Of a DNA stretch of 64,000 bases, positions 1-5,357 are shown piece by piece. Numbering within the stretch: the first letter of the stretch is position 1; each line of letters begins with the position of its first letter. The notes beneath the pieces were generated by a model. That model was not told the DNA's origin. It ran no database searches and was given only the letters and a program-made list of their open reading frames with translations. Location: assembly GCA_018995085.1 (NCBI GenBank), contig GCA_018995085.1_3936.1; one strand, written 5' to 3'. The DNA comes from a phage. The translations under genes were made by a program, and so were the position numbers.

Positions 1-124
1 AAAAAAATTCCAACCAGTTGGAAAGTACACTACGAAGGACGTTTGCGCAGAATTTATCAGGATGTGCAAAGCAATAGTGCATCGAGTTACATTATAGTAA
101 AAGGTAAAAAACTGCATTTAGTGT

Positions 125-210
125 AAAGTACTTTACAGGGGGTTATCAAGCTGATAAGATAACCCCAGATAAAGAGCTTTACCACTCAATCCTAAATTGG
201 AGATTCTAAA
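125..210 (+). promoter_or_regulatory. second-type intergenic cassette (AAAGTACTTTACA, GGGG..CCCC hairpin, AGATAAAGAGCTTTAC, SD)
   Basis: near-identical flanks at 921-1006; TTTACA-N17-TAAGAT possible promoter overlapping hairpin. Confidence 0.4.
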
Positions 211-615
211 ATGGCTATTAATAACCGTGAATTATCAATCTTAAAAGCACGTTTGACCGTCAACCGGATTAATGTTCTGACATCATCAGCGCCTGATGAG
301 ACATTGCACAACATTATCGGAAAGATTCAAAGTGTTATCTTAGACGTTGAAAACGTAAAAAACTCATTGGCTGACGTTGCAGCAGGTATCACGCTAGACG
401 GTGCGCAATATGAAATGATTGATATGTTAGGCAAATCAAAGGTTATGAATAAAGAGTTAGACCTAAAAATGTTTCGATTTGCCGTGAAAGTATGGCTATC
501 TGTCGAGTATGATGCTAATTTTGCAATCGCTGATTTCTTCGCCACTTGGTTACAACGTAATTTGACAAATCACGATTTTCGTGGCATCTGCGATGCAATT
601 TATGCAGAACTCTAA
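211..615 (+). CDS. hypothetical early protein
   Basis: ORF track; SD-like GGAGA upstream; first of a tandem run of small plus-strand genes. Confidence 0.6.
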   Translation: MAINNRELSILKARLTVNRINVLTSSAPDETLHNIIGKIQSVILDVENVKNSLADVAAGITLDGAQYEMIDMLGKSKVMNKELDLKMFRFAVKVWLSVEYDANFAIADFFATWLQRNLTNHDFRGICDAIYAEL

Positions 616-624
616 AAAATTTTG

Positions 625-718
625 TTGACACTGGTTTTTAGATAGATTAAATTACACATCAACGGGGAGGGAATGACCTTCCCCACTAAATAAAGTCCTT
701 AAACTAGGAGATTCAAAA
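625..718 (+). promoter_or_regulatory. early promoter-stem-loop cassette (TTGACA-N17-TAAATT, leader hairpin GGGGAGGG..CCTTCCCC, SD TAGGAGA)
   Basis: sigma70-like hexamers with 17-nt spacer read directly; about 60-nt leader nearly identical at five sites. Confidence 0.6.
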
Positions 719-922
719 ATGGCTATTATTAACGGTTTAACCATTGAAACTACACACATCAAAGATATCAAAGTTGGTGATATAGTCCTTTCCCACGGCG
801 TAGAAAAAACTGTCACTGCAAAGGATATCAAAGAGGATTCTTTCATGGGTAGGACTCTCTTCGGTGATTCTTATTGCTTAGGTTATCTTGCAGTTTTAAA
901 AGTTGTCAAAATTAACAAATAA
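719..922 (+). CDS. hypothetical small early protein
   Basis: ORF track; preceded by conserved promoter/hairpin/SD cassette. Confidence 0.6.
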   Translation: MAIINGLTIETTHIKDIKVGDIVLSHGVEKTVTAKDIKEDSFMGRTLFGDSYCLGYLAVLKVVKINK

Positions 923-1006
923 AGTACTTTACAAGGGGCTTATAAGTCTGTAAAGTAAGCCCCAGATAAAGAGCTTTACACAATCCTTAAACTAGGAGAT
1001 TCAAAA
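921..1006 (+). promoter_or_regulatory. second-type intergenic cassette, copy 2
   Basis: same flanking sequence as 125-210 with a different hairpin. Confidence 0.4.
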
Positions 1007-1549
1007 ATGAAATGCTATCACGGAACTACTCAAGAAAATTTCCTCAACCTGATTAATAACGGTGATAAACCATCAGGCGCATGGAATTGTTCGGATATGG
1101 ACGGCAATTTTTACGTGTATCCAGAAAATAAAATCTATGGCGACGATGAGGAAGAAATAGCATCAGAAGGTATCCAACAAGCTCTAGGAAATGCCACTAT
1201 CACCGCAGCTTTCCAGATGAAAACCCAAAATATTGTTATCTTAGAACTCGATATTCCAGAGGATGAGCTGAATGATGATTATTCTTGTGATAATATGTCG
1301 AGTGTGGCAAGTTTTACAGAGTACTTTGATGTAAATTGGATTAAAAAGGTCTATACAACAGAGTTTAACGCTATGTATTCACCTTTTTGTCTTCCTTCAT
1401 TGGATAACCCAAATTTAAACTATCTTGATGAGTCTCTGGAGCTTCTTGCTAAAAGTGTTCAACAGTCGGACAGTATTCAGGTTTTTTGTGACATCATGGA
1501 TACACTGACAGGGAACATTGCAGAAGAGGATTTAAAGAGCTTTTTCTAA
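1007..1549 (+). CDS. hypothetical protein
   Basis: ORF track; SD AGGAGA 8 nt upstream; followed by terminator. Confidence 0.65.
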   Translation: MKCYHGTTQENFLNLINNGDKPSGAWNCSDMDGNFYVYPENKIYGDDEEEIASEGIQQALGNATITAAFQMKTQNIVILELDIPEDELNDDYSCDNMSSVASFTEYFDVNWIKKVYTTEFNAMYSPFCLPSLDNPNLNYLDESLELLAKSVQQSDSIQVFCDIMDTLTGNIAEEDLKSFF

Positions 1550-1581
1550 AAACCTATGCAATCACCTTATAAACACTAATC

Positions 1582-1601
1582 AGCCCCTTGTAGGGGCTTT
1601 T
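1582..1601 (+). terminator. Rho-independent terminator (AGCCCCT-tgt-AGGGGCT + TTTT)
   Basis: GC stem plus T-run directly after stop of 1007..1549. Confidence 0.65.
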
Positions 1602-1615
1602 AGGGGGCTTAAATC

Positions 1616-1849
1616 ATGCTTACAACCATTTATCTCATCCTTTCCATTTGTAACGGCCATTCATGCGATTTTAAAGGGCTTGAGGAGTTCACAGGAAGTA
1701 AAGAAAATGCCATTCAAGTTTGTCAGATAGCAAGGCAAGACTATCCCGCCAGTGATGACATACAATGCTACTTTAAGACAGAAGATGAAGAAGGCATTTA
1801 TTTTGATAGTGTTGACGGTCAATATGAAATTATCATTGAAAAAGACTAG
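1616..1849 (+). CDS. hypothetical small protein
   Basis: ORF track. Confidence 0.5.
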   Translation: MLTTIYLILSICNGHSCDFKGLEEFTGSKENAIQVCQIARQDYPASDDIQCYFKTEDEEGIYFDSVDGQYEIIIEKD

Positions 1850-1940
1850 ACAAGCCTGATAAAAGCTTGTAGAGTGTCAATCAACGGGGAGGGAATAACC
1901 TTCCCCACTAAGTAAAGTCCTTAAACTAGGAGATTCTAAA
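1847..1940 (+). promoter_or_regulatory. early promoter-stem-loop cassette, copy 2 (TAGACA-N17-TAGAGT, weaker hexamers)
   Basis: same leader hairpin and SD as copy 1. Confidence 0.5.
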
Positions 1941-2282
1941 ATGGCTTATGTAACTGTAATTACCGATAAAGAGAATTCATCTTGGTCAACTCAGGTTAGT
2001 GATAAGATGTCACCTATGCAGTGTCTAAAATACTTTGAGCAGTGGAACAAAGGCGAGGATGTAAGCCCCTTTCAGGTAATGCAAATCATCCATACAGATA
2101 ACGAAGGGAATAAAACGACACTGAATAGTGAGTACTATGCAAGCCGTTTTGAAACGAGAAGTAAAACAATGAAGCTTTTACGTGAATCCGGCTATTCTCA
2201 CATTGCCGCGCTAATATGGGATGACCTGCTGAAAAGCCAGCGTATCAGCTATGTAAAACCTGAAAAAATATTCATCAGTTAA
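1941..2282 (+). CDS. hypothetical protein
   Basis: ORF track; preceded by conserved cassette. Confidence 0.6.
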   Translation: MAYVTVITDKENSSWSTQVSDKMSPMQCLKYFEQWNKGEDVSPFQVMQIIHTDNEGNKTTLNSEYYASRFETRSKTMKLLRESGYSHIAALIWDDLLKSQRISYVKPEKIFIS

Positions 2283-2410
2283 TCAATAACTTATAAAAAA
2301 CTTTAAAAAATTACTTGACGATACCCCTTGACAATAGTACATTTGTTCGAGGGGTTTATCTAAAAGGGATTCACTTAAAAGATTCTTTATAGATAAGCTT
2401 AAAAAATTGC

Positions 2411-2503
2411 TTGCAATCAACTATCAAAACAAGTAAATTACTAATCAACGGGGAGGCGATAACCTTCCCCACTAAATAAAGTCCTTAAACTAGGAGATTC
2501 AAA
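2411..2503 (+). promoter_or_regulatory. early promoter-stem-loop cassette, copy 3 (TTGCAA-N17-TAAATT)
   Basis: same leader hairpin and SD. Confidence 0.6.
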
Positions 2504-3034
2504 ATGAACAAGTTCAAAGCTATCAACTATATTCGTTCAAATGCTGTAATGTCTAAGCCTGTTAAAGATACCTACGAATTTCGCTGCAACGGTGTACACT
2601 TCGCAACCATCACTAAATCAGAAAACGGGGCTTATTACGTTCATCGTCGTAATGTTTCGACCGTTGTAGTCTCTCACTTTATGCAAGCTGTAGCAGAATT
2701 ATTACCGTTATTCTTAGAGATTTACTTAGATGAGTGTAAAAACGTTCGCAACCATGTTAAAAACCTTTTAAATGGTTATAAGATGGCTTATGAACGTTCT
2801 ATCAAGAATCTTAACAAGTTCTATAAAGCCCCTGAAAATACTGTATCAATAGCTTATGATGTAAGCGGTGAAATGGCCAACCTCTCTAATGTAGAACAAA
2901 TTAGCCTTTATGATTTACGTCCTAGTGGCTACTCTAAGACTCTCGGTGAAGGTTTATCCTTCAATATCAAGAACTTAGAAAAAACTTTAAAAGATATTGA
3001 AAAAGATATTGACGAGACAATCAAAAGTCTGTAA
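2504..3034 (+). CDS. hypothetical protein
   Basis: ORF track; preceded by conserved cassette. Confidence 0.65.
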   Translation: MNKFKAINYIRSNAVMSKPVKDTYEFRCNGVHFATITKSENGAYYVHRRNVSTVVVSHFMQAVAELLPLFLEIYLDECKNVRNHVKNLLNGYKMAYERSIKNLNKFYKAPENTVSIAYDVSGEMANLSNVEQISLYDLRPSGYSKTLGEGLSFNIKNLEKTLKDIEKDIDETIKSL

Positions 3035-3096
3035 ATTGTCAATCAACGGGGGATAACCTCCCCCACTAAACAAAATCCTAAACTGGAGTTATCAAG
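3009..3096 (+). promoter_or_regulatory. early promoter-stem-loop cassette, copy 4 (TTGACG-N17-TAAATT; hairpin variant GGGGGA..TCCCCC)
   Basis: promoter overlaps stop codon of upstream gene. Confidence 0.6.
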
Positions 3097-3360
3097 ATGG
3101 AAAACGTAGAATTAACCACAATTTTACAAATTGCAACCGACAAAGAAGATGTAGCATTATTCCACCGTATCGAAAGCGATTTGTTCAATGGTGAAATCAT
3201 TAAAGAATCTTACGAAGTTGTCGGATTCAAAGATGGTAAAGCATTTGGCTTTTTTGACCTCGACAAAAGCAAAGCGGTTACAATGTACGATGTTCTATCT
3301 TGTGAAATTCTGACAAAATACAACGAAAAAAGGCTTGCAACCTACGCCAATATGCAGTAA
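3097..3360 (+). CDS. hypothetical small protein
   Basis: ORF track; preceded by cassette variant. Confidence 0.6.
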   Translation: MENVELTTILQIATDKEDVALFHRIESDLFNGEIIKESYEVVGFKDGKAFGFFDLDKSKAVTMYDVLSCEILTKYNEKRLATYANMQ

Positions 3361-3428
3361 ATTACTAATCAACGGGGAGGGAATGACCTTCCCCACTAAA
3401 TAAAGTCCTAAACTGGAGATTCTAAATT
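3335..3428 (+). promoter_or_regulatory. early promoter-stem-loop cassette, copy 5 (TTGCAA-N17-TAAATT)
   Basis: same leader hairpin and SD. Confidence 0.6.
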
Positions 3429-3677
3429 ATGTCAACTATCCGCGTAACTGTTAATGCTTATGGCTGCCACCAACTTGATGCAAAATTCGATATCGGTGGA
3501 ACAGATAATACCTTTGACCTTATCAAAATGCTGATTCAGCAGGTGATACCAGATTATAACCCTACTGATGACTTCTGGAAAGATGCCGTAAAAGAAGCCA
3601 TAAACGAGGAATCTCACTACCATTATTGGGGTGACTTGATTATCTCTCTGTACTACAGCAAACAAGGTTACAACTAA
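3429..3677 (+). CDS. hypothetical small protein
   Basis: ORF track; preceded by conserved cassette; followed by hairpins and terminator. Confidence 0.6.
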   Translation: MSTIRVTVNAYGCHQLDAKFDIGGTDNTFDLIKMLIQQVIPDYNPTDDFWKDAVKEAINEESHYHYWGDLIISLYYSKQGYN

Positions 3678-3715
3678 TCGACGCAGCGGGGCTAAATAGC
3701 CCCAGATACCTTTAC

Positions 3716-3738
3716 AGCCCCTTAAATGGGGCTTTTTT
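3716..3738 (+). terminator. Rho-independent terminator (AGCCCC-ttaaat-GGGGCT + TTTTTT)
   Basis: hairpin plus T6; preceded by a second GGGGC..GCCCC hairpin at 3688-3703. Confidence 0.7.
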
Positions 3739-3739
3739 A

Positions 3740-5340
3740 CGTCTATAAAGAACCCTTTCCTTTCCTTCCCAGAATCTATCCCACTAATTCGATAGAGTCT
3801 ATCCCGTACCTTAAAAAGCAATAACTCTATAGTCTACTCTATAACCTCTTATCAAATCAACTTAAATAAAAGCCAATAACCCCAGAAAGGGGATGGCCCA
3901 TTAAAACGCTCTATAAAGCTCTATAACAGCCTTATCAACCTAACTTAAGCAATCATATTAACCCACTCTAAAAAGCCCTTTATAGAGCTTCCCAGAGCCT
4001 TAAAAGAATCTTATAAGGGTGAAAGCTTATAGGCTGATTAGTATCTTGTGAATGGTTAAACAACCCCCTTGCTAGTCACTAAAAAGCATGTTATAGGGGC
4101 TATAAAGTTACTTCAAAGTTACGTAAAAGAGGCTATAAAGTTACGTAAATGCTAGCCCCCTTAACATTTTCTTAACAATTTCTTAACAATCCCTACATAG
4201 TTATGCTTGTTAGCAACTTGTTAGCCCCTTGTTAAATCTCTGTTAAGACCACGTAAAAGCCTTGTAAGAACCTTTGGCATAGCCTTAAAAGCCCCTGTAA
4301 AGCCCTATAAAGAGCTATCCATACAGTTGAGGGGTAAATACTAGGAAGAGGCTTAAAAGAACTTATAAGGGGCTATAGAGAGCTTTTAAGAGGTATGTTT
4401 AGAGAATCACTAAGAAAGGAAGGGAACGATAAGAAAAGAGATAGTGACCATGTTAATAGCTTGTTAAAAAGATTAAACACTTGTTAGAAACTTGTTAATT
4501 ATCTTAACAAAATAACTCTTTAAAATTAACTTGTCAGCTCTTGTTAGTCATCTGTTAAGATTCTGTAAAACCTATTCAGCACTTGTTAGAAAACTGTTAA
4601 GCTCTTGTTAGTTCTGTTAAGAAACTGTTAAGACCTTTGAAGAGTTGTTAAGAGTTTGAGAGAGTTGTTAAGAGATTGTTAAGGATATTTTAAAATTTTG
4701 CAAAGTACTTGTAAGGGAGCTGTTAAGGGCTACCAAGCAGATATACATCTTCTACAGATATTTTTCAGTTCCTTCAAAGACCCTAAAAAATGACTTGATA
4801 GCCCTATTTTATAAAAATTTTAAAATTCTGAATAATTACCTAGACAGTCTTTTAAAAATACAGGTAGAAACAGGCTTATAAGATACCTTGTTAGTACCGT
4901 GTTAGACCTTGTGAGATAAGGTCTGTGAAGATATTCCTGTTAAGTTTGTTAAAACAGTCTATATAGAGGCTTAGTAGTACCTAGTGAACACCTATAGAGG
5001 GTATCATAGCTAACCTAGAGATTAAGAGGTGTATAGGGGCTTCTAAGAGGGTATAGAGAGATGGTTAAGGTGATTGTATAGGTTGTTAAGAAGGATTGTT
5101 AGAAGAGTGTTTAGAGGGCTATTTAGAAGGGTTATACAGAGGGCTATTAAGACCACTAGATAGTTACTAAGATACTATATAGTACTATATAACTATATAG
5201 AGAGTAAGATTAAGAAGGTTGTTAAGAAGGATAGATATTTTATTCACATATGATGGTGACCCAGAGGTTGGGACAACCGATAAAATTTTATAAAAATATA
5301 AATTTCGTAAATTTTACTCAATAAAAAGCCCCCAATTAAG
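3740..5340. repeat. 1.6 kb ORF-free region with three families of short phased direct repeats
   Basis: CTATAAAG/CTTATAAG family (3744-4400); CTTGTTAG/CTGTTAAG family at roughly 10-12 bp spacing (4170-4730); TATAGAGG/TTAAGAAGG family (4960-5230); AT-rich tract 4740-4860. Confidence 0.8.
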
Positions 5341-5357
5341 GAGGCTCTTAAGATATT

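Follow-up and report, generated by a model that had tools for sequence, protein, structure and literature searches.

The 64,000-nucleotide stretch of phage DNA analysed here (contig GCA_018995085.1_3936.1 of GenBank assembly GCA_018995085.1; hereafter, the window) opens within a plus-strand cluster of small open reading frames (ORFs; 67–180 amino acids (aa)), the tail end of which carries two full copies of an intergenic element in which conserved flanks enclose a GGGG..CCCC hairpin of variable sequence. Positions 1–4500 match Felix O1-like myoviruses over their full length (257 phage records in all, with Escherichia phage vB_EcoM-Pr103Blw on top at 97.6%), and the window is Felixounavirus. 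Pfam returned no family for any ORF of the cluster, including all eight downstream ORFs, and no minus-strand gene was seen there in the ORF list; in the window and in gene-order maps of relatives, the element lies between two same-strand genes in every case. Near-identical Pr103Blw has four copies, of which the extra two lie just upstream, and the window holds only two because it begins mid-cluster. The layout of both copies is given below (nt, nucleotides; bp, base pairs), with transcription starts placed by the usual 6–8 nt distance to −10.

124–182, plus strand: core of copy 1, from the upstream stop codon through −35 and the −10-bearing hairpin to the conserved 3′ flank; identical to Pr103Blw L001 1964–2022
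124–126, plus strand: TAA stop of the upstream ORF, which runs off the window start, within the conserved TAAAGTACTTTA box (Pr103Blw coding sequence end, L001 1966, equals window 126)
125–137, plus strand: 5′ flank AAAGTACTTTACA of copy 1
132–137, plus strand: predicted −35 TTTACA of copy 1 (promoter scan site 132–160, 9/12 matches, TG present)
139–166, plus strand: inner hairpin of copy 1, GGGGTTATC / GATAACCCC, arms 139–147 and 158–166 (9 bp), loop 148–157 (RNAfold and covariation)
152–160, plus strand: predicted extended −10 of copy 1, TG at 152–153, n, TAAGAT at 155–160, with a 17-nt spacer at 138–154
167–182, plus strand: 3′ flank AGATAAAGAGCTTTAC of copy 1
167–213, plus strand: predicted leader of copy 1, likely +1 at A167, GGAG Shine–Dalgarno sequence at 199–202, ATG at 211–213 (134-aa ORF)
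920–980, plus strand: core of copy 2 (sequence and chance controls)
920–922, plus strand: TAA stop of ORF 719–922
921–933, plus strand: 5′ flank AAAGTACTTTACA of copy 2
928–933, plus strand: predicted −35 TTTACA of copy 2 (promoter scan site 928–956)
935–963, plus strand: inner hairpin of copy 2, GGGGCTTAT / GTAAGCCCC, arms 935–943 and 955–963, loop 944–954 (RNAfold); nine pairs, one of them U·G
951–956, plus strand: predicted −10 TAAAGT of copy 2, with a 17-nt spacer at 934–950
964–979, plus strand: 3′ flank AGATAAAGAGCTTTAC of copy 2
964–1009, plus strand: predicted leader of copy 2, likely +1 at A964, GGAG at 995–998, ATG at 1007–1009 (180-aa ORF)

A sequence-only reading of this DNA had placed copies at 125–180 and 921–980 and described their flanks as conserved around differing hairpin bodies; both copies are present where it put them, with flanks identical between them and 80% identity overall (repeat family D13). 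Its proviso that such a motif might be no more frequent than chance in AT-rich sequence can be set aside: the 20-mer CCCCAGATAAAGAGCTTTAC (up to 3 mismatches) and the gapped pattern CTTTACA-N20–45-CCCAGATA each match twice in the window, with 0.00 matches expected for either (100 shuffles in the case of the 20-mer). The 95-nt contexts of copies 1 and 2 fold at −29.7 and −25.2 kcal/mol (z = −4.9 and −4.8 versus shuffles). Together with the stem covariation described below, the shuffle controls rule out a chance or low-complexity repeat. The order of parts is a stop codon, an A/T-rich stretch, −35, a GGGG..CCCC stem-loop overlapping −10, GGAG and ATG, and both TAA stops lie inside TAAAGTAC, 5 nt ahead of TTTACA, as they do in relatives. 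In repeat families D5 and D8, the homology of the cassettes reaches to and past the ATG, so that several otherwise unrelated early ORFs have a common N-terminus. For example, positions 194–228 and 702–736 (family D8) are homologous into the first ~6 codons (ATGGCTATTAATAACCGT against ATGGCTATTATTAACGGT), and the common N-terminus also joined those ORFs in BLAST clustering (family ‘B’).

Across phage records, a 95-nt query over copy 1 found 1347 matching places in 272 records, which comprise Escherichia, Salmonella, Shigella and Citrobacter phages of the Felix O1 group as well as Erwinia phages. A regular-expression search of fetched regions, of the kind that the sequence-only reading had called for, showed that the element recurs throughout the Felixounavirus (wV8, Felix O1, Barry, heid), Mooglevirus (Mordin) and Kolesnikvirus (SunLIRen/Tian) records examined, at 3–9 copies per genome, and an exact-pattern scan of IMG/VR added ~20 contigs (80–90 kb) that carry as many as 10 copies each. 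Drawn from viral contigs and phage records, our variant set holds 194 instances with 68 distinct cores, matches without a hairpin being left out as chance; CTTTACA is present in essentially every copy found by the hairpin-anchored search.

The stem is under selection as a structure. In the 49 ungapped variants, 98.9% of stem cells are paired (91.2% when shuffled) and the covariation score is 0.247 versus 0.108, with none of 500 shuffles as high and registers slid by 1–3 columns scoring at most 0.09. Individual positions show how pairing is kept: GGGG/CCCC becomes GGTG/CACC in Erwinia phages, pair 3 changes from G-C to U-A, pair 5 occurs as C-G, U·G and U-A, and pair 9 takes five standard types in the 49-variant set and six pair types over all 68 variants. 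Wobble is confined to one strand (49 stem pairs are U·G or G·U on the plus strand, and hence A·C on the opposite one), which points to RNA or single-stranded plus-strand DNA rather than to a symmetric duplex site.

The hairpin body is constrained in a further way. TTTACA is followed by TAnnnT in 67 of the 68 distinct cores, at a spacer of 17 nt in 59 and 18 nt in 8, whereas shuffling each variant’s own loop (52 distinct loops) leaves a correctly spaced TAnnnT in 12.7% of trials. In a MAFFT alignment the TA is invariant and the last T is altered in one singleton variant only, while hexamer positions 3–5 carry merely 0.08–0.28 bits; altogether 14 different hexamers occur (including TATCTT, TAAGAT, TAGTAT, TAAAGT, TACCAT and TAATCT), preceded by TGn in 41 of 67. 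A sigma-70 −10 element shows this same pattern of conservation. Structure does not explain the invariant TA, because it sits in the unpaired loop. In the 44-nt length class, to which copy 1 belongs, the absent base falls downstream of −10, and the spacer therefore remains 17 nt. With TA...T at 17–18 nt from TTTACA, the 5′ flank is therefore read as the −35 region, and the −10 as occupying the loop and 3′ arm. Hardly any change is seen at the stem pair holding the final T of the −10 (A-U in 46 of 49), next to a pair that varies freely, such that promoter and stem constraints are superimposed on the same bases. The earlier claim of a structured regulatory element thus holds, and compensatory change bears out its corollary that the stem matters; the other half of that corollary, a body free to vary in sequence, is contradicted by the fixed TA...T. 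A generic promoter scan lists both copies, and the BPROM table S1 for phage UAB_Phi87 gives TTTACA/TGATATCTT and TTTACA/TGGTAGGAT as promoters (PMC4837284).

Other promoter arrangements were considered. A second promoter in the 3′ flank (TTTACC...) would lack a suitably spaced TAnnnT, as read from the window sequence. Middle promoters of T4 have their MotA box 11–13 nt from −10. The 5′ flank of many relatives reads GTGCTTTA, which recalls such a box, but it stands 19 nt from −10 and the candidate was ruled out; the statement of the Felix O1 authors that there are no factors modifying polymerase specificity also counts against a MotA-type reading (PMC3185647).

Gene content changes mostly at these elements and at those of a second kind of hairpin cassette in the same cluster (the first family, described below). 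On comparing the window, Pr103Blw, wV8, Felix O1, Barry, heid and Mordin, most gene-order differences fall between cassettes of the two families: between genes D and E, wV8 has an extra gene and one cassette of the present family, three genes are missing from Felix O1 between two cassette positions, and the order M-N-J in Felix O1 stands against H-I-J in wV8 and M-H-I-N-J in Mordin, with copies of the present family at those junctions in Mordin and within the mapped regions of Felix O1 and wV8. Mordin also carries two elements in direct tandem without a gene between them (L005 2417–2517), and Barry a 127-bp tandem duplication that includes one element and the end of the upstream gene (L002 1447–1711), both of which look like footprints of recombination between copies. 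Upstream of gene A, the hairpin body of the window shares 72–75% identity with its counterparts in wV8, Felix O1 and heid (gene A 90–92% identical), and 90% with that in Mordin (gene A 71% identical); given this discordance, hairpin bodies move independently of their neighbours.

Taking the sequence signature, the stem covariation with its strand-specific wobble, the copy number, the position and the link to indels as observed, we consider that the element is probably a composite early promoter/stem-loop cassette similar to the ‘promoter-early stem-loop’ (PeSL) cassettes of T4-like phages such as RB49. We read the 5′ flank mainly as the −35 together with an upstream A/T-rich region, and take the transcript leader to begin with the 3′ flank. 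The mechanism that we infer from this has a DNA and an RNA side. In double-stranded DNA, host sigma-70 RNA polymerase would take TTTACA as −35 and, after a 17–18 bp spacer, TAnnnT (often TGn-extended) as −10, and would start at the purine right behind the CCCC run (around A167 and A964), giving the downstream small early gene its own A/U-rich leader of ~44 nt with a GGAG ribosome-binding site. In RNA made from promoters further upstream, the same stretch would fold into the 9-bp G+C-rich hairpin, the promoter spacer serving as its 5′ arm, the −10 as its loop and 3′ arm, and the CCCC run doubling as discriminator. This inner stem, which starts 13 nt past the upstream stop codon, would stay just clear of the terminating ribosome, and would most likely attenuate or pause read-through or form a protective 3′ end for the upstream cistron, either of which may insulate each gene cassette. 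Any reduction of read-through, if it occurs, would be as for the RB49 stem-loop in a reporter. Since a unit of ~90 bp is repeated many times, the copies may also provide the homology for recombination that adds, deletes or swaps small early genes.

Several points weigh against this interpretation. The match of TTTACA with TAAAGT or TAAGAT to consensus is only 9/12, and, as strong TTGACA-17-TAAATT promoters of the first family are nearby, a second promoter is not strictly needed. No U-run follows the hairpin and the terminator scan is silent on both copies and both strands, which makes classical intrinsic termination unlikely, and the proposed attenuator role is carried over solely from the RB49 reporter result. 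The 68 variants are related and were partly ascertained through exact flank patterns, so that their counts are not independent events. The searchable literature yielded no transcript 5′ or 3′ ends for Felix O1-like phages, and the timing of expression in Felix O1 by reverse-transcription PCR (RT-PCR) is only loosely compatible with a promoter: in end-point RT-PCR, ORFs 16 and 20, just downstream of copies, peak at 5 min and ORF 19 belongs to the 25-min class, but ORF 17, although downstream of a copy, also peaks at 25 min. We take these timings as at best a weak hint of a promoter. Finally, the feature accounted for least well is how strongly the 3′ flank AGATAAAGAGCTTTAC is conserved, which the promoter itself does not explain; this keeps alive the readings of the element as an RNA-processing site or an operator.

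An RNA-only intercistronic site, that is, an imperfect palindrome of ~58 nt that is processed or stabilizes RNA in the manner of the T7 RNase III sites, with merely incidental promoter-like hexamers, would part the cistrons by cleavage and leave a protective 3′ hairpin. It would explain the conservation of the 3′ flank by the need to complement a constrained 5′ flank, and would suit an element that always lies between same-strand genes. For both copies RNAfold indeed pairs the two flanks with each other into ~20 bp in three tiers (outer UAAAGU/GCUUUA, middle CUUUA/UAAAG and the inner 9-bp stem) separated by 1×1 and 3×3 internal loops. Pairing of the outer helix, at 94.7% versus 92.6% shuffled (0 of 2000 as high), is in its favour, with a few compensatory changes (AAAT../GATTTA, U·G to U-A and U·G to C-G); however, outer-helix changes are mixed (~11 compatible versus 7 incompatible) and the middle helix, being invariant, offers no covariation test. 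Moreover, the 5′ strands of both helices (124–135) would be covered by a ribosome terminating at the TAA at 124–126 and would often be unavailable. Rfam returned no family at gathering score (the sole hit over the element, a microRNA-precursor model, reached 22 bits against 104, E = 0.42). What such a site leaves unexplained is the invariant loop TA at 17–18 nt from TTTACA over 52 loops and the sparing of the spacer by length changes, and we regard it as unlikely. An operator or recombinase site on DNA appears still less probable. Here, the TAAAG-NN-CTTTA palindromes (124–135 and 170–181 in copy 1; 920–931 and 967–978 in copy 2; centres 46 bp apart) would act as operators for a phage regulator that turns the promoter off, or as sites for a recombinase working on the cassettes. 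Each of the two nearly invariant flanks forms an inverted repeat, and the boxes bracket the −35 and +1 to +15 in the classical layout of a repressor; in addition, TAAAGNNCTTTA (up to 1 mismatch) occurs 22 times versus 5.9 expected, with 13 of the 22 in the first 4.3 kb, and Arbiol et al. speculated on a protein that recognizes GGGG..CCCC (PMC2839356). This enrichment, however, largely consists of the two cassette families themselves, a candidate binding protein was not identified, and the one-strand T·G pairs of the inner stem fit RNA rather than the symmetry of duplex DNA. As ATAAAGAGCT is enriched only ~2-fold, mostly from cassettes, it was rejected as a dispersed binding motif.

The least probable of the readings, in our view very improbable, is a plain intrinsic terminator on either strand. 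Although a 9-bp G+C-rich stem directly behind a stop codon suggests one, the wV8 record marks L004 8081–8125 as a minus-strand Rho-independent terminator, and the RB49 stem-loop cut downstream lacZ as much as rrnB T1 (PMC2839356), the stem is followed on the plus strand by AGAUAAAG without a T-run (AGATAAAG) and on the minus strand by a variable base and GUAAAG, where the first base past the stem is the one fully variable position (0.26 bits). The scan flags neither copy, the cluster has no minus-strand genes, and it possesses a genuine terminator of its own at 3716–3733. The minus-strand terminator of the wV8 annotation is accordingly ruled out by the variable base and the lack of a T-run. 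Beyond the composite promoter/stem-loop cassette that we favour, there is a small chance that the element is a bifunctional 58-nt palindrome with coupled roles, or that its flanking boxes are operators timing early shut-off. In the coupled version, a double-strand-specific RNase would cleave the three-tier hairpin of read-through RNA at CCCC-A, or the hairpin would make polymerase stall there, such that processed and newly initiated transcripts would have the same leader; in the operator version, a phage factor that times early shut-off would bind the TAAAG-NN-CTTTA boxes. If either is true, a single integrated device would fire the promoter, terminate or process the upstream transcript and mobilize the cassette, and would be more than a promoter that happens to overlap a hairpin.

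At the end of the cluster, a third, related copy had been proposed at 3700–3738.

3687–3740, plus strand: double hairpin, not a member of the family (GGGGCT/AGCCCC at 3688–3693 and 3698–3703, AGATACCTTTACA at 3704–3716, then a terminator)

It does share CCCCAGATA and, in this genome, CTTTACA with the full copies, but has no 5′ flank and no −35/−10 pair. Its TTTACA is not kept in wV8, Felix O1 and heid, relatives having CCTGAAAA, CCCTAACA or CCTGCAAA; its first hairpin opens with the (C)AACGGGG of the first family (several relatives have CAACGGGG), and the short hairpin is followed by a canonical intrinsic terminator at 3716–3733 with its T-run. Membership of the family is ruled out on these grounds. 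Behind the terminator lie ~1.6 kb of repeat-rich non-coding DNA (3740–5350), ORF-free, with dense TGTTA(A/G) repeats at ~11-bp spacing and CTATAAAG boxes (15 in the window versus 3.1 expected, 8 of the 15 within 2385–4312). In Pr103Blw, this non-coding DNA runs up to the annotated short direct terminal repeat. The stretch may be an origin, packaging or terminal-recognition region.

The first hairpin family is interspersed with the present one.

616–722, 1838–1943, 2402–2506, 3005–3099 and 3326–3431: first-family cassettes, in the same cluster

Here, the promoter (−35 TTGACA, TTGCAA or TTGACG, a 17-nt spacer and −10 TAAATT) lies wholly upstream and the hairpin, AACGGGGAGG..CCTTCCCCAC, in the 5′ untranslated region, followed by a ATAAAGTCCTTAA box and a GGAG ribosome-binding site; the counterpart among PeSLs is the subclass whose stem-loop lies downstream of −10. 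Both families share the style of GGGG..CCCC hairpin, a similar ATAAAGnnCTT box behind it and the same GGAG region. The copy at 1838–1943 has a weaker TAGACA-17-TAGAGT, and the spacer of this promoter-like site (1847–1875) contains an inverted repeat, ACAAGC..GCTTGT (1850–1870), which is a third way of joining hairpin and promoter in the cluster. Between the 180-aa and 77-aa ORFs, a further hairpin, AGCCCCTTGTAGGGGCT (1582–1598), precedes TTTAGGG; the wV8 and Barry annotations label it a terminator, the scan used here flags it on the minus strand only, and the 77-aa ORF behind it is without a promoter of its own. Cleavage of the GGAG sites by a T4 RegB-type enzyme was also considered and dropped: an ORF of Erwinia phage Tian (L007 1047–1559) is annotated ‘putative T4 endoribonuclease RegB’, but matches the SLT lytic transglycosylase domain in Pfam (E = 5e-5), as does Felix O1 ORF3 (L008 3582–4130) weakly, and from its sequence the RegB annotation looks wrong.

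The sequence of the element has been recorded before. The Felix O1 genome paper of 2010 lists, with no function assigned, ‘two 57 bp direct repeats’ that lie between genes 15/16 and 19/20 (PMC3185647), and this repeat, CTTTACATGGGGCTTAAAAGTCTGTAAAGTAAGCCCCAGATAAAGAGCTTTACCACT, is the same sequence as the window element; the GenBank features DR_1, DR_7 and DR_9 of wV8 overlie copies, and in UAB_Phi87 TTTACA/TGATATCTT is one promoter hit among 42 (PMC4837284). None of these three sources mentions the hairpin, its covariation, the composite nature or the link to gene shuffling. The composite promoter/stem-loop reading would make this recorded sequence an example of the PeSL kind. If so, a repeat unexplained in Felix O1-type genome records since 2009–2010 would have an explanation, and early promoters and transcript boundaries would be predicted for clustered orphan host-takeover genes of phages that find wide use in Salmonella and E. 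coli typing, biocontrol and therapy. The copies may also serve engineering as a compact, naturally occurring set of promoter variants in which −35 and spacer length stay constant and the −10 comes in many versions.

Among known systems, the early-gene RNase III sites of T7 (such as R1.1) are intercistronic irregular hairpins of ~60 nt with an internal loop and without a promoter. The element likewise lies between cistrons, in an early polycistronic region of a virulent coliphage, and is predicted to fold into an irregular hairpin, but covariation lends its lower helices little support, and terminating ribosomes would mask them.

The closest likeness is to the PeSL cassettes of the T4-like phages RB49/phi1, T4/PST and KVP40/nt-1, which consist of strong sigma-70 promoters with GGGG..CCCC stem-loops, cluster among orphan ORFs and mediate indels (PMC2839356; PMC4122927). 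Their parts are the stop codon of the preceding gene, set in A/T-rich sequence, a sigma-70 promoter, a stem-loop (between −35 and −10 or over −10) with G-T pairs, a Shine–Dalgarno sequence and an ATG, and they occupy the orphan ORFs of hyperplastic regions (PMC2839356). The Felix O1-like element, known here from sequence alone, has each of these anatomical features in the same order, including the predicted sigma-70 −35 and −10, the G-T pairs, the Shine–Dalgarno sequence and the ATG. Both are conserved over ~90–100 bp, have many copies between small orphan early ORFs, and coincide with indels and replacements between close relatives. In the RB49 intergenic regions 199/198 and 186/185 that we inspected, the loop and 3′ arm hold the −10, just as in the element, and the RB49 stem-loop that scores as a terminator likewise has no U-run. 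The two differ in that the −35 is TTTACA rather than the TTGACA of PeSLs, the −10 is weaker, and the Felix O1-like flanks are complementary to each other, which, unlike in PeSLs, permits an extended hairpin of ~20 bp. PeSL hosts are Straboviridae whereas the present element belongs to Ounavirinae, and BLAST found no sequence similarity between the element and RB49; on sequence grounds, the same design is present in a different phage lineage, with homology to RB49 not demonstrable. This suggests that the design, a promoter within a hairpin repeated as a portable linker of small early genes, extends beyond T4-like phages, and its recurrence without sequence similarity in an unrelated myovirus subfamily points to a general way of insulating and shuffling early-gene cassettes.

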